Source: Octopus vulgaris
Lineage: Eukaryota
Direction: 5' to 3'
DNA: 64,000 bases
Assembly (NCBI GenBank): GCA_951406725.2
Contig: OX597821.1
Location: 14,384,001 to 14,448,000, forward strand
Positions 3,250-63,429 of this stretch are shown piece after piece; the first letter of the stretch is position 1; each line of letters begins with the position of its first letter. The notes below the pieces were generated by a model. It ran no database searches. It had not been told where the DNA came from and was given only the letters and a program-made list of their open reading frames with translations. A program made the translations under genes and the position numbers.

Positions 3250-4530
3250 TGTGTGCATTTTTGTGTCAACTTGTCTTGACATTGCATGATTGTTGTAAAT
3301 GAATGCCATTCATTTCCAATATTCCGTGCAAACATGTCTGGCTTTGGGGAAATATTGAAATATTACTTTGCTTGGAAACATGTAAGGTTTGGTAACATGA
3401 AGGGCATCTGAGTGTCGAAAATCTGCCTCAGTAAGCTTTGTCTGACTCATACAAGCATTGGAAAATGGACATTAAAACGATGATGATAATGATGCTGATG
3501 ATTACATGAAGAATTGATAAACATTGAATAATTGTGTAATTATTGAGAATTGATAATATTTATTTGAGAGTTACTTGAAGAATTATGTTAAATAAAGCAA
3601 AAGCTGGAGAATTAACTATAATATTCATTATCAGCAAGTCAAATACTGCAGTTTATAAGGCTTTCAATGATGCATCTGCTTTAGGTATGATACATATATT
3701 GCTATTTTGAACAACAATATATCACAATGTTTAAATTATAATGTTGCTTAATCCTAAGTCTGTCCTGAATTGAGCTGACTTATGATGAAAGTAATTTCAA
3801 CTAAGGCATAGAGTTTCTACTACAATACTATTCAATGTGTCCTTTTATTTGAAGATAATAAGAATGATGTAAGGAAAACTGAAAGTTCTTGCAATTTCTA
3901 CCAAGTGAAGTGACCATGTAAATGACTCCTTATTGGCTTGAATATCGAAACATCTTTCTGGACAAAGCTCTTGAGAGTCGCACCAAATTCAGATCTTAGA
4001 GCAAGCCAGAGTATTTTACACTTTTCACCAAGCAAAAGTAAACCTTCATCAGCAACACTGAAGTTTAAGAGAATGATTACATTCTTCTTTATTCACCGAT
4101 GAATGAAGCCTTGACAAGGAGGAATTAACGTCAGCAGACATCAAACAATAAATGAGAGAAAAAGATTAATTTTTGATACCATTTTAACCTTGACTGTTAT
4201 AGATTTGAATACTGTTTTATGCTTATATATACATCCATATATATACCCACATTCAAGAATACATAGGCTTAGACATGTTTAGTAAAGAAGCTTGTTTTGT
4301 AATCATTGCATGGCACCTTGGACAAGTGTCATCTACAGCCATGGGTTAACTAATGCCTTGTGAGTAAAGCTGATAAAAAGAAACTGCATGGAGGCCCATC
4401 GCGTTTGTGTTTATATAGATGTGTGTGTGTGTGTGTGTGTGAGCATGAAAGTCTCCATTTCTCATATGAGATCATCTGAGTGAAAAATATAGTTGCCATA
4501 TTTTCATATCTAGAGAACATTATAAACTTT

Positions 4531-5052
4531 AACGTAAAGTATACTAGCCATCTCAATATGGCTAACCACTGAGGGTGGGTGTTACTGTAGCTTTTAGCCC
4601 CAGGAGATCATCGTCTCCAGCTGGCTTTAGGCACACTTTCTGTGCCCTTATGGTATTTGCAAAGGGAGGTCATCCCTCTCGTAAACCTAAGTGATACGCA
4701 CGGACTGCAGGTTCTAGGTATTGACCTGTCATCAGTGTACAACAATCACCAGTTTTCGATGAAGGGAGACCTGTTTGCAAATATTTATTTATTGCCGTAC
4801 GCCGAAGACAGGCAAATACCTAGAACCTGCAGTCCGTGCGTATCACTTAGGTTTACGAGAGAGGGATGACCTCCCTTTGCAAATACCATAAGGGCACAGA
4901 AAGTGTGCCTAAAGCCAGCTGGAGACGATGATCTCCTGGGGCTAAAAGCTACAGTAACACCCACCCCTAGTGGTTAGCCATATTGAGATGGCTAGTATAC
5001 TTTACGTTGTCGAGCAGTAACTGTTTACATCTCATTCAGAGATTTATTATTG
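4531..5052. mobile_element. Fold-back HHR element related to the 359-bp unit, with a 12-bp TSD
   Basis: Inverted arms at ~4531-4725 and ~4815-5010 plus a ~40-nt tail ending GAGATTTATTATTG. TSD ATTATAAACTTT at 4519-4530 and 5053-5064. HHR-like cores at 4796-4840 (+) and ~4697-4740 (-). Confidence 0.8.
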
Positions 5053-5809
5053 ATTATAAACTTTGTACTGTTGAATGTGTGGGATAAATTTCCCTCACTT
5101 ACAAAACAGTAAAATGCTGACAGTAGAAAAAGCATCTGGTTGTAAAAATACTGCTTCAAACAAGTACCTACCTAACCTAAACTAACATAATAAATTAACA
5201 TAAATCAAACAAAAATAAACACAACTAAACTAATTACTAGCCATATGTTTACTAGTTTTATTATTCAATTTACTTATAATCCATCTCTCCAATAATTGCA
5301 ATAATAATTTAACCCATCCATAAAGAAATGCTTTAATATATACATCTCTACTGACTTGAGCTATACACACCATTTGGTGCCATGAGCAAAACTATCATAA
5401 CACACTGGATGCCAAAAGCATCGATGATGGTTGGTACTTCATTTATAATACATTTAGTAAATAAGATTCTGTACAGGTCATTGATTATTATCTGTGAGCG
5501 GTATTTATAGAATGGTAAAGTTTTAAACTATAAACTTTCAAACCATGAGAAAGTGAGAAAAAGTAGGAAATGGTTAATAATAATCAAGTATTTTCACAAT
5601 TGGTTTGAAAAATCTTTTGATTCAGATAAAAGATTAGGGACTAATACTAAATATAGAAATCATTAAGGCATCACTGAGTCTTTACAAAACAAAATATCTA
5701 ACCCTTACAGTACATTAAGGTCTCATAGTACTGATAATATGAAACAGTTTAAGTTTGAGTTTGTTGTTTCAAGTATGCTGCTGAAACACATAAAAAAAGG
5801 TACAAGCAC

Positions 5810-6065
5810 ATCATCATCATCATCATCATCATCATTTAACGTCCGCTTTCCATGCTAGCATGGGTTGGACGGTTCAACTGGTGTCTGGGGAGCCCGAAGG
5901 CTGCACCAGGCCAGTCAGATCTGGCAGTGTTTCTACAGCTGGATGCCCTTCCTAACGTCAACCACTCCGAGAGTGTAGTGGGTGATTTTATGTGCCACCG
6001 ACATAGGTGCCAGACGAGGCTGGCGAACGGCCACGCTCGGATGGTGTTTTTATGTGCCACCGACA
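5810..6065 (-). mobile_element. Repeat family D with an (ATG)n tail (RTE-type 3' end, inferred)
   Basis: ...CCAACCCATGCTAGCATGGAAAGCGGACGTTAAATGATGATG. Copies at ~3300-3500, 10500-10685, 14675-14985, 25087-25250, 30200-30380, 33810-33990 and 58943-58982. Confidence 0.7.
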
Positions 6066-6165
6066 TCAGTCTTTTAATTTCCTTATTTTTAAGATAACAC
6101 TCCCAATATTTTATTAAACAGATAGAAAGGCCTAAAATATTTTGAGTTATAACTACAAACATTTT

Positions 6166-6663
6166 CAGGTATACTAGCCATCTCAATATGGCTAATCACT
6201 AGGGGTGGGTGTTACTGTAGCTTTTTAGTGAGATGTAAACAGTAAGCGCTCGACAACGTAAAGTATACTAGCCATCTCAATATGGCTAACCACAGAGATT
6301 TATTATTGCTTTCAGATCGTTTTTCGAAATCAGTGACAGTGGTTACTGGGAAAAACATTAAATAGATATTCACAAACAGGTCTCTCTCTTATCGAAAACC
6401 TGTGATTACCATGTGTTGACAAGAGACAATAATCTCAAAACTGCAGTCCATGCGCATCACTTAGGTTTACGAGAGGGGTGACCTCTCTTTGCAAATATCA
6501 TAAGGGCACAGAAATTGTTTCTAAAGCCAGCTGGAGACGATGATCTCCTGGGGCTAAAAAGCTACAGTAACACCCACCCCTAGTGGTTAGCCATATTGAG
6601 ATGGCTAGTATACTTTACGTTGTCAAGCGCTTACTGTTTACATCTCGCTCAGAGATTTATTAT
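6166..6663. mobile_element. Same family: two short inverted pieces plus one full ~357-bp unit, 12-bp TSD
   Basis: AGAGATTTATTATT recurs at 6294 and 6651. TSD TACAAACATTTT at 6154-6165 and 6664-6675. Decayed HHR at ~6412-6455. Confidence 0.78.
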
Positions 6664-7685
6664 TACAAACATTTTATTAAATAGATAAACATTTTTATAT
6701 GCTTTTCTTTGCTAAACTAGAAAGCTATTATAATGAATATCATAACCTTCTGCATGGGTTTTCATGCTGATTTATCATTTTCAGAATATTTGATGCTCAT
6801 AATACTTTAAAACTTTTCTTAGACTTGAGCATACAGATAACTAGTGCTATAAGTGTTTCGTCTGATATATTGTCAGTCAGTGATTTGCAGGTAGAGAAGT
6901 GTGGGTGTGGTTCTAGAAAGATCAGTTCAAAGAATGAAGTATTAGAGTAGGGGGAAACATATTTAATGTATAGAATATGAAAATGTTAGAATAAAATCAG
7001 ATATGAAACACACTAGTATTAGTTGCTGACTAATATTAATATTTTGAATCAGCAACTATGGGAGACAACTCCAGATATGTTTCACTTTTACTGAACTTCT
7101 TCAGTGTAAGCAGAAACTTCTAATCTGCTGAAGAATTAGCAATCAAACAGCTAAATAAATATGTATAAACCTAAATATTCTTAGTATAGAATTAGTGAAT
7201 CACTGAAAAATTAAACTAAATTGAGATGTTATGTAAGGCAGTTGAAATGAACAAGAAAAACAAAGAGATGTACATCGAATAAGTGGAGGTGGGGAGGATA
7301 TAATCAGTAAGTTTAAGGAAGAGACTGCTGTAATTGCAATGGAAGAAATGAAGTGAATTGAGTTACTGTTCGATAGACCAAGTGATTTGAAACTATTGGT
7401 GATTGGCACCTAGTCTATAGGGAAAGAGAAATTTTTTCATGAGAAAACATGAACAAAAATTTCCCAAAGAATTTGTTTAAACAATTTCTAGATAGTTTTT
7501 AAGTAATATTCTAAATGATTCCCAGGTGACAGAAATGTGTATTTAAATTCATTTTTCCAGAGATATATATTTTGATGTATCGTTTCATTCATGTTACTTA
7601 ATTCACATGTAAGTTTTCAGAAAATGTGATTAGTGGTACTATGGACAGTTTTAAAAGAGTAGATCTCTTTCTTAATAATTTAAAA

Positions 7686-7769
7686 CGAGATGTAAACAGT
7701 AACCGCTCGACAACGTAAAGTGTACTAGCCATCTGAATGTGGCTAGCCACTGGGGGTGGGTGTTACTGA
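7686..7769 (-). mobile_element. Fragment of the same HHR element family
   Basis: GAGATGTAAACAGTAACCGCTCGACAACGTAAAG...AGCCATCTGAATGTGGCT...GGGTGTTACTG closely matches the minus-orientation pieces at ~6170-6293. Confidence 0.7.
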
Positions 7770-7879
7770 CGCTTTTCTTAAAGTTGTTTAATGCAAAATA
7801 TGCATTAAAAATAATCAAAATAAAATCCAAATATAAATAGCACATTCAACTGGATATTAACAAAAAAAAAAAAAAAATT

Positions 7880-9900
7880 CCTGTAACTTTAGTTTGAAGT
7901 CCCTGTCTACTACCTTTCTAAGTATAACTGTTTTCTCTACTACACAGAACTCTTAATAACCACTCAAGGACTCTGCCTTACTTCATCCTCCTCTGAAGTC
8001 ACTCCAATATTTTCAGTTCCCTCTGGCTTTGAAAATATTTCCATTAATGATCATTGGGGAAGAAACCTTGCACACTTCTCAAATTTTTGCATCAATTAGT
8101 TTCATCCCTATACATATTCCTCACAGACACACTCAGACACTTCAAACACCCTTTGAAGTCTTTCTCACCTCTAGACTAAAACTAAACTTTACCAGACCAT
8201 TACAGTCTCTATGGCCATTCATGTCACCTATCCCTGCTTTATTACAAGTACCCAACACATATTCACATTACAATACAATGTCTTTCTTACCTCTCTGATC
8301 CTATGGCATTTCATGGGAGGTGACTTATCAAAACTCACCAAGCTGTATATTTACTACCCCACGAAATATGTGCACCACCCTCTCATCTGTCTGAAACAGC
8401 TAAGCAGGTGATCTAAACAATCTATTTAAGCATGTCCCTCTATAATCCATACACAATCAAAACACAGTTCCAAGTCATCCAAATAGTTAATTCATAGCAG
8501 TGTTGCAGTAGTTTGAGTAAAAACATAACCTGCACACTTGGAATAATTTGCCCCAACAAGTTAAATGGCTTTTACCCAGTAAATCCTATATGATCATCAT
8601 ATGAAACTTGAAAGATGTTCCTTGCATTGCACAGCCTGCAAGCTTTGCATCTCTCAAACTGCATCTCCTTTCAGTCTCTTACCAAAGTGACTACCAATTC
8701 TGATGAATCTTTTTTCACTCCATTTCCCAAACATGATGCTTCTAAAAGTTACTGTCCACATTACATCCCACTCCACATGGCACACACCAGGTAAATCTCT
8801 GAATTAACTTCTTTCTCTCTACTCTGTTCTTCATCATATGAAGATACATGGTTAATTACCAAAGCCTCTCCAATCATTTCAAACCAACAATATCACACTC
8901 TGACAACATCTCTTCCATTGTGATCAAATAATGTATAGAAGAGTCATCTCCTAAATTTTCCAAACTTTTTAATTGCTTTTTATCTTCAGAAATATGTCTC
9001 AATCTTTAGAAAGATGCTGTAATGTGTCACATGCACAAGAAAAAGCCCTTTGATCTCTCTAACTGTCACCCTATCACACTCACTTTCAATATCTCAAAGA
9101 TAATGGAGATAGCTATTAACAACATTCCTCAATATCTTGGATATTTCTTCTTTCTTCATGGTTACTAGTATGGTTTTCATGAAGCCAAATCTATAGGAGT
9201 CCTTCTCTTCTATGTCATTCTCCAGTGGGTTCTCGCTTTAAGAGAATTTGTTGAAAACAATGTTTATACACAAAATATTAGAAAAACACTTATGTGTGTG
9301 GTATACATATCTCCTCACAAAACTGATCACCTATGGGCTCCATATATCTGTCATCTTTTATATAGATGGCTTCCAATAAGATCACACCATTGTGAGGCAT
9401 GTTGATGTATTTCCTTCATCCTATCTCACTCACTTTCAGCATCTCAAAAGTAACGGTAGTTAACCAATAACAACAACCTTCTCCAACACTTTCAATATCT
9501 CTTCCTTCTTCATGACCACCAATATGGCTTTTATGAAGCCAGATCCAGAGAGCTATGTTAAAAGTAAGTTGACTGGTACAAACCATTCATCAACACACTC
9601 TAACATCGAAAGTACACATCTGTTGTCTCCTCTCTCCCTGACTCTTCTACTACAGTGGTTCTGATCCTCTTTACCCACTCCGCTTGTGTCTCATTCACTC
9701 AAGTATACTCGATTCATCTATATTCTCCCATCATCCACATTGTGTCCACCCCTACAGACTTTGCATTAATCATTAAACCCAATTCTTTCTCTCTAGAACA
9801 TCCTTTATCAAGTATTATTTTTCAGCTCAGTATTTTCCTATGACCATTGACTTGCAACTGTTTAAGAGGAACAGTAACTGTGTCAATCTTAATAGTCTCA
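7880..9900 (+). mobile_element. Old decayed L2/CR1-like LINE
   Basis: Pyrimidine-rich, with RT remnants such as HPITLT and LHDHQYGFYEARS (~9510). Confidence 0.45.
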
Positions 9901-10801
9901 GTAGAGTTGTAAATCACTTTGTCTAGACAAATACATTAAATGAAAAAGTGATTTAACAACTCAAAAGAGAAAATGTTAACAAATGTGAAAACAAACACAA
10001 TAAAAATTTTATTATTAAAGACATGGGTGTAAGGGGGTGAGGCGGCAGAATCATTAGCACACTAGGTAAAATGCTTAATGGCATTTTGTTTGTCATTATG
10101 TTCTGAGTTCAAATTCCACTATGGTTGACTTTAACTTTTGGGGTCAGTAAAATAAGTGTCAGCCAAGTAAAGGGGTCAATATAATCAACTTCCCTCTCTC
10201 CTCAAAAACTACTAGTCCTTTGCCAAAATTTGAAATCTTTATCAAGGACACCAGCATGCCCTTAATAATAAAGAATATGATCCTAAACTTGATATTTTCT
10301 AGAAAAATATTTTGAGTTTTAGAAAGTGATTGAGAACTTTGGTGATAAGTGGTGTTTGAAAAGACTCTTCAGGCCAAATGCAATCATAGCCATGACCACT
10401 GTCTGGTAAACGACACTGGAAAAATCGTAGTTGTCTGGTAAACGACACTGGAAAAATCATAGTTGTGGCCATGGCCATGGCCGACATCATGTAAATGGTG
10501 TCCATGTTGGTGGCACATGAAAAGCATTCATTACATTCTTAGAATGGTTGGCATTAGGAAGGATGTCCAGCCATAAAAACCATGCCAAATCAGACTGGAA
10601 AGTGGTGCAGCTTCCCGGCTTACCAGTTCCAGCCAAACAGCCTAACCCATGCTAGCATGGAAAACGGATGTTAATGATGATGATGAAATAACTTTTATTT
10701 AACATTCTAAACTGAATGAAATGGACAGATAACCACAAGTTTGATTTCATTCATTATCTTTGTTTGCAAAATTGCAAAAGTAAATAAATAAAATAATCAA
10801 A

Positions 10802-10966
10802 GGCGCAGGAGTGGCTGTGTGGTAAGTAGCTTGCTAACCAACCACATGGTTCCGAGTTCAGCCCCACTGCGTGGCATCTTGGGCAAGTGTCTTCTGCTAT
10901 AGCCCCAGGCCGACCAATGCCTTGTGAGTGGATTTGGTAGACGGAAACTGAAAGAAGCACGGCGTA

Positions 10967-11007
<41 letters not shown>

Positions 11008-11225
11008 ATGTGTTTGTGTGTCTGTGTTTGTTCCCCTAGCATTGCTTGACAACCGATGCTTGTGTGTTTACGTCCCCGTCACTTAGCGGTTCGGCAAAAG
11101 AGTCCAATAGAATAAGTACTGGGCTTACAAAGAATAAATCCTGGGGTCGATTTGCTCGACTAAAGGCGGTGCTCCAGCATGGCCGCAGTCAAATGACTGA
11201 AACAAGTAAAAGAGTAAAAGAGTAA
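10802..11225 (+). mobile_element. SINE family A, full length
   Basis: GGCGCAGGAGTGGCTGTGTGG (A box), GAGTTCAGCCC (B box), tail GAAACAAGTAAAAGAGTAAAAGAG. Confidence 0.9.
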
Positions 11226-11953
11226 AGGGAAATAATACAAGTGGACTAATGACTTGAACCTAGGTAAGTTAATGGGTAATGTACTTAATGAAACACAGCA
11301 AATGTTTTCGATTAAAATTTCCCTTTAATTTGAAGGAAAGCAACAAAAGCTGGCTGCAAATATTGGCAGCTCTATAAGTGTAGAAAAAACTAAAATTTTA
11401 TTACTCAAAATGAATTTACATCCTAAAACAAAATTCTGATGTTTGTTTACTGGCAAAAGGATAACTATTGACATGTGTTGCCCTTAATGAACCTCATCAC
11501 GACAGCATAATTTATTCATGCCTAATTTGATCAATTGGCTAAAAGGGGGTCCTGCAAAGAGACAGCATTATCGTAACTGGAATGCATTACATCAGTGGTC
11601 TACTCATTCATGGTTGGTCTGGGGCTAAATGAGAATAACAATAGTAAAGTAAACGAACATACACAAATCCACAATAGTGGCGGCATACATGCAAGCATAT
11701 CCACATTCACACACTCTTTCACTTGTTTCAGTTATTTGACTGTGGCCATGCTGGAGCACTGCCTTCAGTTGAACAAATCGACCCCAGGACTTATTCTTTG
11801 TAAGCCCAGTACTTATTCTGTCAGTCTGTTCTGCCGAACCGCTAAGATAAGGGGAAGTAAACACACCAGCATCGGTTGTCAAGCAATGTTGGGGGGGGGG
11901 GGGGACAGACACAGACAAACATATACACACACATACATACATATATACATACA

Positions 11954-11990
<37 letters not shown>

Positions 11991-11993
<3 letters not shown>

Positions 11994-12807
11994 ATGAAAT
12001 GGATAAATGAATTATCTTGTTACGGATTATTCAAACTTTAACCGATACCTGTGTAGCAAAAATCACACCAGAAAAGACACGGTTGAGGTTACGACCATGG
12101 GGTTTCGCACCTGTGCTTTAGCGCGGATAATTGAAGTTTTATATATTTAGTGAAGGGAAGAAATGGAGCCGAACGAAGATTCTACAAAATTCCTTTTTAT
12201 TATTTTCTACACATGTTTCAAAGGCTGCAAATTCCCAAATTCGGATTGAATAAGGAGACCATTCTGCAGCTTTCTCTTCAGGAAAATCCAGGAATTTAAA
12301 ATCTCAAAACAAATGTGCAGCAAGCTTTTCGAACAAAATGCTCCCTAGGAGCCCATGGCGCATACACACACATACATGTAGGTAGTTCCTCACACCCAAA
12401 TAAGATAACTGTCATTCTTAAGACAATTTGAACATTAACACTAGTTATACAGAATATATTCACACTCTTTGGGTTTTCTGTGATTCTTCCCCTACCTGAT
12501 TTGACCGTGGTTTGACCTAGGTTTATTCCAATGGATTTTTTCGTCGGCCTTCACCCACTCTGACGTCAGCGCATATTGAGAGACAGTTTTGTGCCATTTT
12601 TACCATGGGCTCCTAGGGAGCGTTTTGTTCGAAAAGCTTGCTGCGCATTTGTTTTGAGATTTTAAATTCCTGGATTTTCCTGAAGAGAAAGCTGCAGAAT
12701 GGTCTCCTTATTCAATCCGAATTTGGGAATTAGCAGCCTTTGAAACATGTGTAGAAAATAATAAAAAGGAATTTTGTAGAATCTTCGTTCGGCTCCATTT
12801 CTTCTCT

Positions 12808-12812
<5 letters not shown>
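11991..12812. mobile_element. Penelope-type fold-back element with an HHR in each arm, inserted in the (TA)n of a SINE
   Basis: Arms at ~12148-12358 and ~12603-12812 are inverted copies. HHRs at 12674-12759 (+) and ~12201-12286 (-). Confidence 0.75.
12674..12759 (+). ncRNA. Type I hammerhead with a long stem II
   Basis: ATTTTC-CTGAAGA-gAAAGCTGC...GCAGCCTTT-GAAA-CATGTG-TA^GAAAAT. Confidence 0.75.
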
Positions 12813-12867
<55 letters not shown>

Positions 12868-13987
12868 TATGATGGGCTTCTTTCAGTTTCTGTCTACCAA
12901 ATCCACTCACAAGGCTGTGGTCGGCCCGAGGCTATAGTAGAAGACACTTGCCCAAGGTGCCATGCAGTGGGGCTGAACCCAGAACCATGTGGTTGGTAAG
13001 CAAGCTACTTACCACACAGCCACTCCTGTGCCTAATCACATTTATAACAGAACTACACACACACGCACATACATATACACACACCCAAACACACACATGT
13101 ACACATAATCACTTACACCCTAAGACAAGAGTGAACTCAAATATGCAAATAGCACAAGCATGGCCGTGTGGTAAGAAATTTGCTTCCCAAACAAGACCAA
13201 TCCTACTTAGGCAAGTGTCGTCTACTATAGCCTTGGGCTGACCTTGTGAGTGGATTTGGTAGACAGAAGCTGAAAAAGCCTGTCAGATATGTGTGTGTGT
13301 GTATGTGGCAGTGTTTATGTCCCCATAACTTAATGGTTCGGCAAAAGGGACCAATAGAATAAGTACCAGGCTTTAAAGAATAAGTACTGGGGTCAATTCT
13401 TCAAGAAGGCACTCCAGCATGGCCACAATTTAATGATTGAAACAAGCAAAAGATACCTATGAGATGGTAACAAACATTCATAAGCACATAACCACAGAAA
13501 GCAGATAATTCAACAAGAGTTGGTTGACATCAAACACAGATACAAGAATATAATAACACTAACATAAAGATGCATATCTGGGATGTAAGCACACACACAC
13601 AAACACACGCAAGGAAAATGATGATTACAAGGTACGGAGGATACATGGACAATTAGACTGATATACAAATATATTGATATACATATTGAATGATTTTCGT
13701 CATTTTTTCCCCTTTTGCCTACGTGGTTTGTTTTCAAGTGCTTTGGTTTTTCTGGGAACTCCCTTTAAAGTAGAAAGAATAGCTAGGATTTTGACTGCTA
13801 TTTCTAAACTTTGGTGTGTGGTGAATTTAATCGTGGCTGAACCCTAATTATATAGTATTACTTAAACTTACCATAAAATGGTCTTTTTTCATGCCGAATT
13901 CTACTTGGTGAAATTACTAATTACTTCTTAATTAATTAATTTCACCCTTTGTTATTACATATTGAATGATAGATATTGTTATACATA

Positions 13988-14221
13988 TTTATTTCTTTAT
14001 TGCCCACAGGGGGATAAACATAGAGGAGACAAACAAGGTCAGACAAAGGGATTAAGTCGAATACATCAACCCCAGTGCACAACTGGTACTTAATTTACCG
14101 ACCCCGAAAGGATGAAAGGCAAAGTCGACCTCAGCGAAATTTGAACTCAGAATGTAACAGCAGACAAAATACCACTAAGCATTTTGCCCTGCGTGCTAAC
14201 GATTCTGCCAGTTCACTGCCC
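13988..14221 (-). mobile_element. tRNA-derived SINE family B
   Basis: Head TGGCAGAATCG..GAGTTCAAAT and core GCCTTTCATCCTTTCGGGGTCG. Other copies at ~850-960, 10035-10235, 34148-34350, 35272-35470 and 40450-40670. Confidence 0.8.
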
Positions 14222-15029
14222 TGTTGTTTACACACATTGAATGATAGGTTATCAGAGATAAACATGCTAATAGACTGACATACATGTAGAAGGGTTATAA
14301 GCTTACTGATGTATAAACTGGCCAAAGGGTATAGACAGGTGTTTCATGATTTGATAGACTGATGTATAGGCAGAGAGAATGTCTTATATAATTATACATG
14401 TGTATGTCTGTGAGTGTAGGTATATATGTGTATGCATATACATGTATAAATATAAATATGTATGCAGCATCATTTTCATTTAATGTCCATCTCCAATATA
14501 TATATGTATCTATATGTATATCTATATTTATCAAAATAAAAACATGATGCAAAGGATTTAGCGGTACATATGTTTCGGGCCTTTATTAGACGGTTTATAA
14601 CCTACACCACTAAATGGTATATACAGGTGCTTACAATTATCAAGTATTCACCCTGAATTTTTTGTATATGTATATCATCATCATCATCATCTTCATTGTT
14701 TAGCATCAGTTTTCTATGCTGGCATAGGTTGGATGGTTTGACTGAGGACTGGGAAGCCAGGAGGCTGCACCAGGCTCCAATCTGTTCTGGCAAGGGTTTT
14801 TACAGCTGGATGCCCTTCCTAACACCAACCACTTCGAGAGTGTAGTGGGTGCTTTTTATGTGCCACTGGCACAGGAGCCAGTCAGGTGGCACTGACTTTA
14901 ACCATGCTCAAATGATGCTTTTTACATGCCAGTGGCACTGGCATCGGTCACGACAATGATTTCGCTTGACCCAACAGGTCTTCTCATATGTCAATATATA
15001 TGTATGTTCATATATATATATATATATTT

Positions 15030-15381
15030 GTTTTATGACCCCTTCAGTCATGACTGACCATGGGATTGCATCTAGAAAGTTACCCTCCCAGGCACAAGTC
15101 CAGGCAAGGTTGTTTATGGAAGACCAGCAGTCGCCCATGCATACCAGCCTCCCCTCTCCATGCCACCAGTGTTATCCAAGGGAAAGGTAAAGGGGCCGAT
15201 ACAGCTTGGCACCTGTGACGTCACAACTCATTTCTACAGCTGAGTGAACTGGCGCAACGTGAAATAAAGTGTCTTGCTCAAGAACACAACATGCAGCATC
15301 CGGGATTGAAACACAACATCCGGGATTGAAACTCACAATCTCACGATCATAAGCTTGACGCTCTAACTACCGAGCCATGCG

Positions 15382-15385
<4 letters not shown>
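15030..15385 (-). mobile_element. tRNA-headed SINE family E
   Basis: Minus-strand head GGCGCATGGCTCGGTAG...GAGTTTCAATCCC followed by CTTGAGCAAGACACTT. Confidence 0.65.
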
Positions 15386-15421
<36 letters not shown>

Positions 15422-15481
15422 TCAATAAATATATCTGTATATATGTATGTCCATGTGTGTATATATATATATAAATATATC

Positions 15482-15586
15482 CGTGAGGTATACTTGCCAT
15501 CTCAATATGGCTAACCACTAAGGGTGGGTGTTACTGTAGCTTGTAACCCCAGGATAACATCGTCTCGTTCAGAGATTTATTATTGC
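15482..15586. mobile_element. Minimal insertion of the same family (inverted arm plus tail), 12-bp TSD
   Basis: GCCATCTCAATATGGCT...CCCCAGG followed by CAGAGATTTATTATTG. TSD TATAAATATATC at 15470-15481 and 15587-15598. Confidence 0.72.
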
Positions 15587-16470
15587 TATAAATATATCTT
15601 TGCATACTTAACTGGGTTTATTGAATTACACAAGAATAATTGATACACAGAAGTTCAAACTATGTACCCTTTGATATATATGCTATTTAACACCTTCACA
15701 GATGACAACAATGCACTTTAACTAAACTATACACACATACATCAGCAATCACATACCCCAATCCCTTTTCTCTTCCTCTTTCTTCTCTCTCCTCTTTGTT
15801 TCTCTCTTGATTTTATCCTCTCTCTTCTCACCCGCATTCCTCTTCTCTCACACTCAATCACTCTCACTCTCTTTCTCCACTTAATCTCATTATGACTTAG
15901 ATTGTGTTTTCTCAGTCAGTTCAACTAACTCACTATTCAACTTCCTTTTTACATCAAGCCAGCAATGTAAACAGATGTTATAAATCTGGTTTCATTCCTA
16001 ATTCCTATTCTCCTCCATTTTTTTCAAATCACTTACCTTTCTTTGATTAAGGGTATTATCTGAAACATTAGATCCCCTTTTATTTTTTACTAGGGGAATT
16101 AATTACGTTTTACACAGTTATTGTTTGTTCAAATTTTCTATGCTTTTTCTCCATGTATTTTACATATCCAACTTCATAAATTACTTATTTTCTTGTCTTG
16201 GCTTTTTTGTAACCATCCTTTGTAGGGATATCAACTAATATCCTTACACTTGCACAGAACAAATCACTTCCATTTAGGGATTGACCTTACATACATTAAA
16301 CTATCTAGTAACTTGTTTGGAGTCACTGTGTGGTAAGAAGTTTGCATTCCAACCACGTGGTTCTGGGTTCAGTCCCACTGAGTGGCACCTTGGGCAAGTA
16401 TCTTCTACTATAGCCTCAGGCCAACCAAAGCTTTGTGAGTGGATTTGGTAGACAGAAACTGAAAGCTTGT

Positions 16471-16512
<42 letters not shown>

Positions 16513-16745
16513 TGTGTTTGTCCCCCCACCATCGCTTGACACCATGCTGTACCTGTAAGTTGACCAGGGTCAACTTACAGGTGTATAGCATGGAAGATAG
16601 GTTTATATGTACCAGTAAATAATGTAGCAAATACGTGACTGAGCAGACATCAAATACACACTCACATCTATGTACGAGCAGACACACTGACACACACATA
16701 CACTCATACAAACACATATATATACTTGTTTGTGCAAATATTATG

Positions 16746-17130
16746 TGGAAGCACTCCGTCGGTTATGACGATGAGGGTTCTGGTTGATCCGAATCAATGG
16801 AACATCCTGCTCGTGAAATTAACGTGTAAGTGGCTGAGCACTCCACAGACACGTGTACCCTTAATGTAGTTCTTGGGGATTTTCAGCGTGACACAGAGAG
16901 TGACAAGGCTGGCTTTTTGAAATACAGGTACAACAGAAACAGGAAGTAAGAGTGAGAGAAAGTTGTGGTGAAAGAGTACAGCAGGGATCACCACCATCCC
17001 CTGCCGGAGCCTCGTGGAGCTTTAGGTGTTTTCGCTCAATAAACACTCACAACACCCGGTCTGAGAATCGAAACCGCGATCCTACGACCGCGAGTCCGCT
17101 GCCCTAACCACTGGGCCATTGCGCCTCCAC
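16746..17130 (-). mobile_element. tRNA-derived SINE family C with a 12-bp TSD
   Basis: Head GTGGAGGCGCAATGGCCCAGTGG...GTTTCGATTC. TSD GCAAATATTATG at 16734-16745 and 17131-17142. Confidence 0.9.
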
Positions 17131-17185
17131 GCAAATATTATGCGATGGTACTAAATCAATAAACCAGAGTTAAATATCAGAATTG

Positions 17186-18955
17186 TTTCAAATTTTGGTA
17201 CAAGGCCAGCAATTTCGGAGGGGAAGGAGTAAGGTGATTATATCGATTCTAGTGTTCAACTGGTACTTATTTTATTGGTCCTGGTAAAGTCGACCTCAGT
17301 GAAATTTGAACTCAGAATGTAAAGATGGATGAAATACCATTAAGCATCTTGTTTGACATGCTAACAATTCTGCTAGCTCACCCAAGAGTTAAACATAATA
17401 ATCCTTTCTACTATAGGCACAAGGCCTGAAATTTTTTGTAGGGGAGGGCATAAATCAATTACCTTGACCCTGGTACATAGCTGTTAGTACTTTTATCCAC
17501 CCTGGAGGGATGAAAGGCAAAGTTGACCTTGACGGAATTTGAACTCAAAACATACGAAATGCTGTTAAGCATTTTACCTATTTCTTTACTACCCACAAGG
17601 GGCTAAATACAGAGAGGACAAACAAGGACAGACAAACGGGTTAAGTCGATAATTCGACCCCAGTGCATAACTGGTACTTAATTTATCGACCCCGAAAGGA
17701 TGAAAGGCAAAGTCGACCTCAGCAGAATTTGAACTACCGATTCTGCCAGCTCGCCGCCTTTAGCATTTACCTGTTAAGCATTTTACCTGCCATGCTAATG
17801 ATTCTGCCAGCTCACTGCCTTTAGAGTTAAATATAATAATAACAACAGTGGAAGCGACTTTTTTTAACAGGTGCAAGCATGGCTGTGTGCTGGGTAGTTT
17901 GCTTGCAGACCACATGGTTTCAGGTTCAGGTCCAGAACATGCACTTTGAGCAAGTGCCTTCTACTATAGTCCTAGGCCAACCAAATCCTTGTAAATGGAT
18001 TTGGTAAGTGACAAAATGCAAACTGAAAGAAGTTCACCACATATGTGTGCGTGTGTGCATATATGTGTTATTTGGGAGTGAGTGTATGTGTTGTGCGTGT
18101 GTGTGTGTGTATGTGTGTGTGAGTGAGTGTATGTGAGTCTTTGTTTATGTGTGTGCAAATGAATCTTACCATCATGAAAGTAGTATCCTTTGTTTCCAAG
18201 CTTCTTTTGTCTTTTGGCCTTTAGGGGAGTGTAGAGGGCACCAGTTCATGCAACAGGTCCAAAACCACTGAAGACAATTACAGTGGTTCTGAACCAGGCA
18301 ATATGGTATTTTTACCACCTTCCAAGAGAATGAAGGGATCTCTTTCATAACTGCTACCCAGACCCATACAACATATGTACATGCAACATATGTGTTAGCT
18401 AGCAGTATGTGGTTCAGTTTAAGGCAGCAAATTGGCAGAATCGTTAGCACATCAGGCAAAATGCTTAGCAGAATTTTGTCCATATTGAAGGTGGTGAGCA
18501 TCTGCCGTTATGTTCTGAGTTCAAATTCCGCCAAGGTCAACTTTGCCTTTCATCCTTTCAGGGTCGATAAATTAAGTACCAGTTACACACTGGTGTCAAT
18601 GTAATCGACTTAATCCTTTTGTCTGTCCTTGTTCAAATTCCGCCGAGGTCAACTTTGCCTTTCATCCTTTCAGGGTCGATAAATTAAGTACCAGTTACAC
18701 ACTGGTGTCAATGTAATCGACTTAATCCTTTTGTTTGTCCTTTTTTGTCCCCTCTATGTTTAGCCCCTTGTAGGTAATAAAGAAATAAGAATTTTGTCCA
18801 TATTCCTGTTCTGAGTTCAAATTCTACCAAGGTTGATTTCACCTTTTATTCTTTCGGGGTCAATAAAATTAGTAACAGTTGAGTATTGGGGTTGATGTAA
18901 TTGATTTATTCCATCCTCCTGAAATTGCTGGCTTTGTGCCAAAATTTGAAATCAG
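17186..18955. mobile_element. Cluster of nested SINE B copies (- at 17186-17820, + at 18422-18955 with a ~120-bp internal duplication)
   Basis: Repeated GAAAGGCAAAGTCGACC / GGTCAACTTTGCCTTTC cores. Confidence 0.75.
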
Positions 18956-19197
18956 TATATGGCTCTACTCTCTCTCTTTTACTCTTTTACTTGTTTCAGT
19001 TATTTGACTGTAGCCATGCTGGAGCACCGCCTTTTAGTCGAGCAAATCGACCTCAGGATTTATTCTTTGTAAGCTTAGTACTTATTCTACTGGTCTCTTT
19101 TGCTGAATGACTAAGTTACGGGGATGTAAACACACCAGCATTTGTTTTCAAGTGATGTTGGGGGAACAAACACAGACACATAAACAAATACATGCAC

Positions 19198-19232
<35 letters not shown>

Positions 19233-19263
19233 TATATGCATATATATATATATATATATATAT

Positions 19264-22293
<3,030 letters not shown>

Positions 22294-23835
22294 TGGAAAA
22301 CTGAAGGAAGGTAAAATATGCCCCATTCATAAAGGAGGTAGCAGAGCGGAAGCCAAGAACTATAGACCTATCTCTCTGACCTCACACATCAGCAAGGTCA
22401 TGGAACGAATAGTCAGAAGGAAGCTGATCACCTTCCTTGAAGAGAATGACTTGCTGCCCGACACCCAACATGGTTTCCGACCAGGGAGAAGCTGTTTAAC
22501 TCAGCTCCTACAACACTATGACTGGGTGCTGAAACGGCTGCTCAACCACTCAAATGTGGAAGTGATATATCTCGACTTTGCAAAGGCCTTTGATAAAGTC
22601 GATCATGGAATGATATGTCACAAACTGCGTGATCTCAACATAGTTGGAAAACTGGGAGAATGGCTTCATGACTTTCTGAAGGATAGAAGTCAGGTGGTAG
22701 TAGCCAATGGGGCCACCTCCATTAACACACAAATAGTGAGCGGTGTTCCGCAGGGCACTGTTCTGGGACCACTACTGTTCATAATGGCCCTCTCAGACAT
22801 GCCCTCAGCCACGCAGAGAGCCACGATCACAAGTTATGCAGATGATACAAAAGTTTCACAGGCAATACAGAACCCTGAGGACACTAAACACCTGCAATGT
22901 GAGCTGGACGAAATATACAAGTGGGCTGAAAAGAATAGCATGCAGTTCAATGCTGGAAAGTTTCAAGCTTTATACTATCAGCATGCAAAACTGAATGCAA
23001 TACCCAATGAATACACTGGACCCGGAGGGATTGCAATCCCAGAGGCACAATCAGTGCGTGACCTGGGTATTCACATGAGTGATGACGCGACCTTTCATGT
23101 ACATGTTGCTAAACTGACAATGAAATGTAGACGGCTGGCTTGATGGATTCTTAGAACCTTTAGAACAAGAGAACAAGAAACCATGATGGTCCTCTGGAAG
23201 ACACTTGTCCTAAGCCACTTTGACTATTGCTCTCAGCTATGGTCACCATCCAGTGTCAAGTTGATCACAGAACTTGAGGCGATCCAACGAAGCTACACAA
23301 AGAAGATAGCCTCTATGCAGAATGTAAGCTACTGGGAAAGACTCAAGAGATTAAAATTATATTCCCTGGAGCGTAGGCGGGAAAGATATGCCATAATATA
23401 CATCTGGAAGATCCTGGAGGGAAGTGTCCTGAACTTTGGCATCGAGAGTTATGCAAATGCCAGAACTGGGCGCCACTGCGTGGTGCCTAGGACTCCAAAC
23501 CTGCCATCAAGATGTAGGACAAGATTCTGTGATAGCCTGGGCTTCCGAGGCCCACAGCTCTTCAATATCCTCCCAAAGAACCTGAGAGACCTGCATGGGG
23601 TGGATACAGATGTCTTTAAAATGAAGCTGGATCTCTTCCTGTCAGGTGTCCCAGATGAACCAACTTCACAGCAGGAGGGGCAGATGAGGGCAGCTGCATC
23701 GAACTCTCTCATGCACCAAATAGCAGTTGCTAGAAAGCCTCCATGAAGTGAAACCAAGTAGCGACACCAAATGGCGGTGCCCCAGCATGGCCACAGTTCA
23801 TAAGCTGAAACTAGAATCAATCAATCAATCAATCA
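22294..23835 (+). mobile_element. 5'-truncated CR1/L2-group LINE, RT domain, one in-frame stop, (TCAA)n tail
   Basis: Motifs [40 protein letters not shown] and YSLERRR. ORFs 22400-23143 and 23183-23746 are in the same frame, separated by a TGA. Confidence 0.92.
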
Positions 23836-30799: not shown

Positions 30800-31845
30800 T
30801 ATAATAATAATAATAATGAAATTATTGTATACAGTGCTTGGGTGCACCACAACTTGTCAGAAAGTGCGTATAAAGTATATGCAGTAATGTACAAATGTTT
30901 GGAAAGCGAACAATGTATGAGTCAGATACATTCTTGTGTGTGTATGGAGGGGAGAAAATCAGGTGTAGTGTTGGCGAATCTCAGAAAGCATGGAAGTTTT
31001 GAAGGATGCAGTGCTCCGACAACTAACAACTGATGCTGGCAGTTTGTTCCATGCTTCAGCAACTCTCAGCGTGAAAAAATGTTTCCAAAAGTCATGGGAG
31101 CTGTGCTGTTTTCTGACTTTGTAAATATGTCCACGGGTGTTAGACAGGTGGAGTTTGAAAAGGTGCTCAGAGTTAATGTTTGTAAGATGGTTAATAATTT
31201 AATAATTTTATGGGTGTCTGCCAGATGTCGGAGTTTCAATGTGTCCATGCCCAGGGAAGTAACGCGTTCAGAATATGGCAAATGCCTGATGGAGGGTATT
31301 CTTTTGGTTGCACGTCACTGAACAGCTTCCAGACGATTAATATCCTGGGCAAGATAGGGGTTCCAAACCGGTGATGCAAATTCCAGGTGAGGTCTTACCA
31401 TAGCTATATAAAGCCGCAGATAGATAGCTGGAGAGTGGCTCACAAAGGACTTGGTGAGGGATGCCAAGACACCCTCAGCCTTCTTGGCAATTTTAGCGAT
31501 GTGTTTTGTCCAACACAAATCGCTGTCGACAATAACACCCAGGTCACGTTCACACGAAGACTTTTTGACATTAGAGTTGTGGAGGGAGTAAGTAGACACT
31601 GGGTTTTTCCTCCCAAAATGCACGGTGTTACATTTGTCCACAGCCAGCTTGAGTTGCCAGTCCATGATCCACTTCTGCATTGTGTCCAGGTCTGATTGCA
31701 ATAAAGATCTATAGTGTACAGGATCTGACCTCTTTATTTCGAGGTACAGCTTGATGTCGTCTGCATATTTCAGCACTGTGGCATTCTTTAAGTTGGCATC
31801 TATGTCATTAACATATGCAACAAATAAAAGGGGGCCAAGAACAGA
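30800..31845 (-). mobile_element. CR1-like LINE 3' fragment
   Basis: Motifs LKYADDIKL, ERDLGVIVD and VRPHLEFASPVWNP; (TTA)n tail near 30800. Confidence 0.88.
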
Positions 31846-46670: not shown

Positions 46671-46852
46671 AATATATATATATATTTATAGATAAAAACG
46701 GTAAGATAAACAAAAGAAAGAAAGAGACCTCAATATTATGTAAATAGAGAAAATTTATCTATAAAATAATAGTCAAGATAAAACTCTGAGTTTTATCTTG
46801 ACTATTGAGTAATTGTAACATATTATTTTATATATATATGTATATATATATA

Positions 46853-47396
46853 GTGATGCATATTTGCCATTTGAATATGGCTAATCCATAAGGGTGGATG
46901 CTACTGTAGTTTGTAGCCCCAGGAAGATATCTCCTCCAGCTGGCTATAGACACACTATCTGTGTCCTGTCAGTATTTGTGAAGGGGAGTCATCCTGCCCG
47001 TCTTCAACACATGATACACATGTACCCGAGTTTCAAGGTGTTTACCTTTCATCAGCATGTGACAATCATGGTTGTCGATGAGAAGTCAGATCCCTTCACA
47101 AATACATATACTTTTTCCAGTGTCGATTTGACACTGATATTGAAAAAGTGAAATCAAACAATGATAAATCTCAGAGTGAGTTATAAACAGTAGCGGTAAC
47201 ACATCGTGATGCATATTTGCCATTTGAATATGGCTAACCCATATTCTATAGTCTATAGCCAGCTGGAGGAGATATCTTCCTGGGGCTACAAACTACAGTA
47301 GCATCCACCCTTATAGGTTAGCCATATTCAAATGGCAAATATGCATCACGATGTGTTACCGCTACTGTTTATAACTCGCTCTGAGATTTATCATTG
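46853..47396. mobile_element. Third subfamily: ~1.1 units of a 353-bp monomer (-) plus a short tailed arm (+)
   Basis: GTGATGCATATTTGCC recurs at 46853 and 47206. Inverted arm at ~47250-47396 ends GAGATTTATCATTG. Inserted in (TA)n. Confidence 0.8.
47017..47061 (-). ncRNA. Canonical type I hammerhead ribozyme
   Basis: Minus strand reads CACATG-CTGATGA-AAGGT aaac ACCTT-GAAA-C TCGG G-TA^CATGTG, with all core nucleotides canonical. Confidence 0.88.
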
Positions 47397-47457
<61 letters not shown>

Positions 47458-61909: not shown

Positions 61910-62128
61910 TAGAATGAAAGATAGAGGGTAGAAGAGAAAGCTTGAAAGCAAAAGCAAATATAAAGATAAAAAGGAAATTAAAGAAAGAAATCCCAGTTTA
62001 AGTAACATAGAAAACATTTTATAACAATTTCTATAAATATATTTAGGTAAAAGTTTAAAGATTTTACATATTATACTGATTCTGTTAATTAAATGTCAAA
62101 TAAAATGAAACAGTTTGAAAGCACTCAC

Positions 62129-63205
62129 CTGCATTGAAGTATCAGTTGAAGCTTGGGTCGTCATCCGATGCAAAGACTCCTCATCTATATCCAACAGGTT
62201 GGTGTTGCTGGGATTTTCCTGATTCTCTTTGCAGTTGAAGTTTGTTGTTCCACCTTGCCCACTCAACTTGGGTGTATTGGGGTTTGAGCCCCGCATCACA
62301 CAAGGCGGTGGTGAACTCATGGATTTCGTCTCCACACTGTTTGTATCCCAGTCGTTTCTAGGAACCTCGGAGGCAACATCCATTAAGTCGACACTTTTGG
62401 CGAAGGCATCCCTCAGATTGACGGAGTGGAAGGAGACTATGCTTCCATTCCTCTTCGCCCGCTCGAGAGCCTCCTTACGTTTCAATGCTTTTTCTCTTCT
62501 CATCTGATCTTTATAAAATTCGGCGAAATTATTGACAATGATTGGAATTGGAAGCGCAATAACTAGCACACCACAAATACAACATACGCCACCAACAACT
62601 TTTCCCAGGATCGTCGTCGGGTAGATGTCACCATATCCTACCGTCGTCATAGTGATGGCAGCCCACCAGAATGTTTCGGGGATACTAACGTACTTAGTTC
62701 CTGGTTCGTCTTTTTCCGCAAAGTAGGCAAGGCTTGAGAATAAGAGTATTCCAATGGCCAAAAACATCATTAATAGACCTAGCTCTTTATAACTTCTCTG
62801 TAAAGTGTACCCTAAGGATTGCAGACCAGTTGAATGTCTTGCAAGTTTTAGAATTCGCAGAATTCTCATTATTCGAAAGATTTGCACCACTCTGCGGACA
62901 TTTTGGAACTGTTCCGTCGTACTCTTGTTGGTCTCAGTCAATCCTAGGGAAATGAAATAAGGCATGATTGCCAATAGGTCTATAATGTTCAAAGGTCCTT
63001 TGAAAAATTTCCACTTATTCGGGGAGGCCCAGAATCGTCCCAGATATTCCAAGGTAAACCATCCAATGCAAACAGCTTCTACAATTGCAAGCTGTGGGTT
63101 ATCAGCCCCTTCCTGCTCTCCTTCACCTTTGAGCCCAGGAATTGTGTTTAATGTTAGCGCCACGGTAGACAGGACAATGAAGAGAATGGACACAATGGCC
63201 AAGAC
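62129..63205 (-). CDS. Shab: Internal exon of a Kv2 (Shab-family) voltage-gated potassium channel: S1-S6, pore and proximal C-terminus
   Basis: The ORF has an S4 ([29 protein letters not shown]), a pore ([18 protein letters not shown]) and an S6 [13 protein letters not shown] typical of Kv2. Acceptor ttttcAG at 63207-63206, donor CAG/GTGAGT at 62128; 1077 nt, phase 0/0. The T1 domain lies outside the window. Confidence 0.95.
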
Positions 63206-63429
63206 CTGAAAAATGTTTTCAAATTCTGGTAACGCTGAAAAAATACACAGGTTAACGAATGGATCTCTTAAAAGATACTCCTAGATAGGGACTTAAATAA
63301 ATAATAGTAAGCTGTTACTCACACCAAAGCATGACTTTGACAAGATAAGGAGTGGGTAAGGAATTTAAAAAAAAAAAATTGGAAGAAAGACAGTTGAAAG
63401 CAAAGTAGCATATGTAAGATATGCTATGA

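Follow-up and report, generated by a model that had tools for sequence, protein, structure and literature searches.

The locus described here raises the question of how a short non-coding repeat comes to be inserted as two opposed copies, only one of which carries the terminal tail. In a 64,000-nucleotide stretch of the Octopus vulgaris genome (NCBI GenBank assembly GCA_951406725.2, contig OX597821.1, positions 14,384,001 to 14,448,000 of the forward strand), hereafter the window, three inserts of one repeat family, family A, are each bordered by an exact 12-bp direct repeat, or target-site duplication (TSD), of 83-92% AT. With position 0 of the family A coordinates set at the last T of TTATTATT, the sense arm of every insert terminates at TTATTATT plus 0-2 nt and the inverted arm ends 43-49 nt before the tailed terminus. 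These features agree with a first-pass annotation of the window, which had reported three AT-rich 12-bp TSDs and, in each insert, one tailed end opposite an inverted copy short of the tail; its "~40-nt tailed arm" needs correction, as ~40 nt is the length of the tail and the tailed arms measure 24 to ~370 nt. A second inverted fragment in insert 2 and a hammerhead motif were both absent from it. We propose that the inserts are retrozymes, likely inserted by the reverse transcriptase (RT)/GIY-YIG protein of a Penelope-like element (PLE) acting in trans and priming both target strands on one RNA, a reading to which we give a probability of about three in four.

Paired ends and spacing of the cut

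To describe the ends genome-wide, we used an internal 33-mer of family A that has 1068 exact matches in the genome. The initial part of these matches, followed in the order of the chromosomes, supplied 73 insertions; five loci that repeated an already counted insertion were removed. Loci of two further families with copies in the window, B (~75% identical to A) and C, were chosen as the best matches to the window copies and are therefore young copies. We found that the 3' ends of the 73 insertions cluster at -4..+9 and at -40..-51, defining two end sites at about +3 (tailed) and -43 (tail-less), 44 nt apart. The stereotyped ends that the first-pass annotation had described for the window recur in this sample.

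Inverted insertions with two canonical ends combine one end of each kind in 82 of 83 cases over the three families. In family A this holds for 40/41, none being tailed twice, with P about 2e-11 if the ends were independent; all 27 such insertions of family B and all 15 of family C are mixed. The remaining family A insertions have either a single 3' end with 5' truncation (23/73) or a non-canonical end (9/73). Inversion is seen at 28 of the 40 family B loci, 27 of them mixed and one (L086) with an irregular end, and two canonical ends at 15 of the 27 family C loci. Furthermore, tail-less ends are found alone at 13/73 A loci and 8/40 B loci, indicating that -43 is itself a start site.

At L245:1001-1440, two family A arms enclose ~155 bp unrelated to the element, and a repeat of 13 bp can be made out by eye in the flanks. 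This locus was scored as single-ended by our script and kept so; by eye it looks like another mixed case, in which another template may have been captured between two complementary DNAs (cDNAs).

Family A often lands outside microsatellites, so that the stagger of the cut can be measured, while copies targeting (TA)n hide it. Among 20 two-ended family A insertions with non-microsatellite flanks, an exact TSD of 11-15 bp was found in 12, with lengths of 11, 12, 13, 14 and 15 bp in 3, 5, 1, 2 and 1 insertions, respectively. In a null set of 380 mismatched flank pairs the longest repeat was 9 bp and none reached 10 bp. Adding two insertions that the script had flagged as low-complexity gives 14 TSDs with the same mode and 80% AT. 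Loci from sets that were not random have TSDs of 12, 12, 13, 12 and 13 bp (L011, L019, L022, L023 and L028) and of 12 bp (L325). The 12-bp length claimed by the first-pass annotation is therefore the mode and not a constant. Because the repeats overlap the element ends by up to several bases, the stagger is given by bounds, which put it at 11-12 nt.

The same annotation had read a tandem array at 19264-21736 as this geometry flipped. The orientation is indeed flipped, and the end at 21736 equals the site of 4531 in the alignment with family A; its score of -41 reflects a 2-nt overlap with the (TA)n target. The array is a member of a different family, B, and its location in (TA)n makes the TSD unmeasurable.

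Repeat units with a predicted hammerhead

The tandem monomers measure 355 nt in family A (L025/L026), 359 nt in B and 353 nt in C, with a GC content of 43-47%. They encode no protein, the longest open frames being 60-88 codons, and contain no open reading frame (ORF) with RT and GIY-YIG domains of the kind that defines an autonomous, endonuclease-containing (EN+) PLE. All three families thus consist of tandem non-coding units within the 150-450-bp range of retrozymes without long terminal repeats (non-LTR retrozymes), and the dispersed copies of family A have TSDs larger than 4 bp, as expected for this class. In family B, many units on different chromosomes are 99-100% identical, and a first look yielded 2316 candidates of family C genome-wide.

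A type I hammerhead motif whose helix III is palindromic is predicted in each unit, the core and three helices being recognised in eight aligned copies. In this alignment 87.6% of cells are paired and 6 of 14 pairs are altered on both sides, for example the core pair C3-G8 changed to U3-A8. Matches to a hammerhead descriptor comprise 427 with C-G, 30 with U-A and 7 mismatched, although these counts are not independent. Minimum-free-energy folding did not recover the hammerhead fold, nor a hairpin common to all tails. Given the predicted hammerhead, the elements class as retrozymes: judged by sequence, the inserts are fragments of non-LTR retrozymes with a predicted type I hammerhead, which fits the published description of this class.

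The motif is intact in every full unit of the family B array (CCGAUGA..GAAA, palindrome CCATGG), the first full copy lying at ~19724-19769 with the cut predicted after 19763. In the family A inserts of the window the core is altered. Insert 1 has a copy at ~4696-4740 in the inverted arm (CUGAUGA core, GAAC replacing GAAA) and one at ~4796-4840 in the sense arm (CCGAAGA core, GAAC, palindrome CTGCAG), and the sense arm of insert 2 has one at ~6411-6452 (UUGACAA core, A at the G12 position). Because of these core changes the window hammerheads of family A are probably inactive. Contigs of four sequencing runs cover the B unit. One of them starts at 19703 in the sense orientation after 26 nt that we take to be a template-switch adapter; being a single contig, it is not used as evidence.

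Further relatives with 68-80% identity and the same tail end were seen at L107:1577-1802, L131:735-1041, L139:5777-6017 and L290:702-1105. Since these diverged copies keep the tail end, the retrozyme superfamily has more subfamilies than the three described.

Proposed priming on one RNA and its alternatives

The family A monomer continues through the tail into the following unit and arms reach up to 15 units; both start sites are therefore internal. The first-pass annotation had proposed that both target strands prime near the RNA 3' end. Priming of both strands is borne out by the 20 of 40 mixed family A insertions that have no arm contained in its partner, while the placement at the RNA 3' end is not. 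In family B either arm may be the longer one: the tailed and tail-less arms measure 142 and 2333 nt in the window, and 3863 and 516 nt at L212. We also considered whether 5' ends pile up at the hammerhead cut and rejected it, with 2/54 lying within 3 nt where ~1 is expected. Arms of up to 15 units, together with 5' ends that show no peak at the cut, point to a multimeric or circular template.

Arms of the same insertion diverge by 3.2%, compared with 5.7% for arms of different insertions (the anchor was present in both arms in 21 of 28 eligible cases; the between-insertion pairs are not independent). At L236, L227 and L230, variants private to one of the 40 B loci fill every covering unit in both arms. 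Such sharing of variants within an insertion makes it likely that a single RNA serves for priming by both strands. At the inversion junctions the overlap averages 1.4 nt against 0.68 nt by chance (p about 0.001; 25 of 27 junctions, two with 17 and 26 inserted bases being excluded).

The two outward-facing 3' ends between the TSDs suggest that both overhangs of a staggered cut acted as primers. Nicks ~11-12 nt apart on the two strands of AT-rich or (TA)n DNA would leave 3' overhangs, and from each 3' end the same RNA, multimeric or circular, would be reverse transcribed. One cDNA would initiate internally near +3 and the other near -43; both would extend random distances, across hammerhead sites and unit borders, until their 3' ends are joined, in many cases over 1-5 nt of microhomology, and filled in. 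It is the identity of the enzyme, the form of the RNA and the order of these steps that we infer. A stricter version, on which our opinion is evenly balanced, holds that integration is obligately asymmetric: one complex with an 11-12-nt stagger would use one RNA at two sites 44 nt apart, never the same site twice, each cDNA would serve as the second strand of the other, and the enzyme would accept a structured RNA unlike its own ends.

Alternatively, a dimeric PLE protein might take two separate RNAs from the cellular pool, one for each protomer, and the asymmetry of the dimer would give one tailed and one tail-less end. The PLE protein of the anole is predicted to be a dimer (PMC11167929), and overlapping arms cannot both be templated by a single linear monomer without recopying. 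However, the arms share subfamily and locus-private variants, which a mixed RNA pool would not supply unless both molecules came from one precursor or locus, and we consider this alternative unlikely.

Less probable still is fold-back self-priming, in which one strand primes, its cDNA folds back and the tail-less end is the stop of the second synthesis. Palindromes at junctions led to the proposal of such a route for PLEs of rotifers (PMC3846280), and it would account for the similarity of the arms within an insertion. Yet tail-less ends exist without an inverted partner, neither arm contains the other in half of the family A cases, and in family B the long arm may be of either kind. The solitary tail-less ends and the non-contained arms exclude fold-back as the general rule; it may apply to the few symmetric junctions in which both arms start from -175 or -116 (L191, L193, L247).

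We give very little credence to mobilisation in trans by a long interspersed nuclear element (LINE) with L1-type twin priming as the source of the inversions: LINE-type RT frames do lie in the window at 22300-23746 (+) and 31315-31845 (-), and variable TSDs with junction microhomology are LINE-like, but L1 twin priming yields non-overlapping arms, unlike the overlapping ones here, the elements have no poly(A) or simple-repeat tail, no 3' end is shared with the two LINE pieces of the window (best E 0.14), in line with the first-pass annotation's preference for a PLE, and two fixed internal sites separated by ~44 nt are what PLEs show in this genome and in the literature. LINEs are left open as partners of retrozymes in PMC7229834.

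PLE proteins with RT and GIY-YIG domains are encoded elsewhere in the genome. A first autonomous PLE family has many uninterrupted frames of 781 aa combining RT with a GIY-YIG domain at the C terminus, and in a second the open frames are 900-1200 codons long; both carry a Cys motif ahead of the nuclease, as in Neptune/Nematis. Copies of the 781-aa family terminate at 0 or -40, and the three that are inverted (L126, L128, L043) pair both ends; a third PLE family (L139) shows the same two-end pairing by eye. The two young autonomous PLE families, represented by L121-L138 and L281-L300, have many uninterrupted reading frames, insert into (TA)n and each carry, by eye, a hammerhead-like motif of their own in the pseudo-LTR (pLTR). 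At L281:6018-6340 the 3' pLTR runs into a related terminal segment and then an inverted copy of that segment. A-like copies near autonomous ORFs at L131, L139, L290, L109 and L080 proved to be separate insertions and not chimeras.

Several observations weigh against insertion by a PLE protein from one RNA with paired starts. In one family A insertion, L194, both ends lack the tail, and a further eight insertions of A, one of B and one of C have one non-canonical end and stand outside the pairing count. Eight of the 20 unique-target insertions lack a clean TSD of at least 11 bp (five have none, three have 6-8 bp). A scan of 4400-22000 with Rfam returned microsatellite-driven matches only and no hammerhead. 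A variant at L211 occurs in 7/7 and 8/15 units of the arms and variants at L220 in 1/3 and 1/3, so that a single monomer circle is contradicted at these loci. The second young PLE family has one 3' end only in 23 of 24 terminal matches. No similarity to families A, B or C was found in 30 GIY-YIG loci, in 20 + 20 long autonomous PLE loci, in 30 shorter loci of the second family or in 88 upstream flanks, and these searches, which score top candidates only and leave out the Penelope/Poseidon and Naiad clades, yielded no autonomous element sharing the tail or the hammerhead region. Finally, the anole protein in vitro showed no start-site difference between the strands (PMC11167929), an observation that lends strict pairing no biochemical support.

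The first-pass annotation had supposed a PLE enzyme supplied in trans. The PLE geometry and the absence of any encoded protein agree with this, while the partner sharing the tail did not appear among the families examined, and so we infer the source of the enzyme from the geometry only.

Window features and comparison with known systems

The coordinates of the inserts are given in Table 1. In addition, a decayed family A fragment (-107..-15) lies at 7684-7776 (-) with no clear TSD, and the family C insertion encloses an extra inverted tailed piece at 47157-47243. The LINE frame on the plus strand lies just past the microsatellite downstream of the family B array. Tandem two-copy duplications of 219 and 112 bp, at 1512-1951 and 18519-18742, fall within common interspersed repeats. 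On the minus strand, a 394-aa open frame at 62096-63280 with the pore motif TVGYGD reads as an exon of a voltage-gated potassium channel, presumably Shab/Kv2-like.

Table 1. Retrozyme insertions in the window and their parts; element coordinates are relative to position 0.
Feature	Window position	Strand	Remarks
Insert 1, left TSD (ATTATAAACTTT)	4519-4530		exact repeat
Insert 1, tail-less inverted arm	4531-4788	-	family A -43..-304
Insert 1, tailed sense arm	4791-5052	+	family A -261..+1
Insert 1, tail	about 5009-5052	+	within tailed sense arm
Insert 1, right TSD (ATTATAAACTTT)	5053-5064		exact repeat
Insert 2, left TSD (TACAAACATTTT)	6154-6165		exact repeat
Insert 2, tail-less inverted arm	6166-6225	-	-107..about -49
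Insert 2, second inverted fragment	6229-6293	-	-81..-17
Insert 2, tailed sense arm	6293-6664	+	slightly more than one monomer; final T overlaps TSD
Insert 2, right TSD (TACAAACATTTT)	6664-6675		exact repeat
Insert 3, left TSD (TATAAATATATC)	15470-15481		edge of TA tract
Insert 3, tail-less inverted arm	15482-15566	-	-45..-129
Insert 3, tailed sense arm	15563-15586	+	~24 nt (-21..+2); 4-nt overlap with inverted arm
Insert 3, right TSD (TATAAATATATC)	15587-15598		exact repeat
Family B, tailed inverted arm	19264-19405	-	-141..0; target (TA)n
Family B, tail-less arm	19404-21736	+	6.5 sense units of 359 nt
Family C insertion	46850-47398		46850 is the tail-less end (-43), 47398 the tailed end (+3); target (TA)n

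Metazoan non-LTR retrozymes have been described as tandem non-coding units of 150-450 bp with a GC content below 50%, one type I hammerhead per unit and TSDs "larger than 4 bp", and PLEs were proposed as their mobilisers (PMC7229834); a type I motif with a palindromic helix III has been described for animal hammerheads (PMC4209133). The octopus elements, known here from sequence, are alike in units, GC, predicted hammerhead and TSDs. Inverted arms, tail ends and a TSD length are absent from the main text of PMC7229834 as covered here, in which "inverted" occurs 0 times.

The insertion units of EN+ PLEs consist of partial tandems with an adjacent inverted 5'-truncated copy, an optional 30-40-bp tail, often at one end only, a TSD and a preference for (TA)n (PMC8557442, PMC3846280). 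The geometry reported here is this signature, as the first-pass annotation had noted. It differs in that the octopus retrozymes have no ORF, in a tail of ~44-47 nt, in a modal TSD of 12 bp compared with 8-10 bp in the rotifer examples, and in that the one-tailed pairing is counted. The origin of the tandem and inverted PLE units and of the one-sided tail is stated as unresolved in PMC8557442, and PMC9977147, in the parts covered, gives no PLE TSD length. Neither a count of tailed and tail-less pairing nor a retrozyme TSD length was found in the literature searched, subscription papers, repeat databases and preprint supplements lying outside it.

In vitro, the Poseidon PAc protein of the anole cuts AT-rich DNA and extends both strands, the tail being defined by two internal sites at which RT starts, and hammerhead cleavage is unnecessary (PMC11167929); likewise, the 5' ends of the octopus retrozymes do not pile up at the cut. 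PAc belongs to an autonomous element, and no coupling of the two sites per event is reported in the parts of that study covered. A recent preprint argues that retrozymes are non-autonomous PLE derivatives (bioRxiv 10.64898/2026.07.22.740005), the same conclusion on origin and mobiliser as ours. The preprint argues from frogs, in which the two co-occur and the pLTR is homologous; our evidence comes from insertion junctions, with no homologous pLTR found.

Taken together, the retrozyme class, the inverted arm, the one-sided tail, the TSD and the two start sites were already known, and PLE mobilisation of retrozymes had been proposed without being shown at junctions, as far as covered in PMC7229834 and the preprint. 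This study adds the measured end pairing and cut spacing. The counts place quantitative constraints on PLE integration and provide numbers that can be tested in vitro, namely an 11-12-nt stagger and starts at +3 and -43, with each site used once per event and one template common to both.

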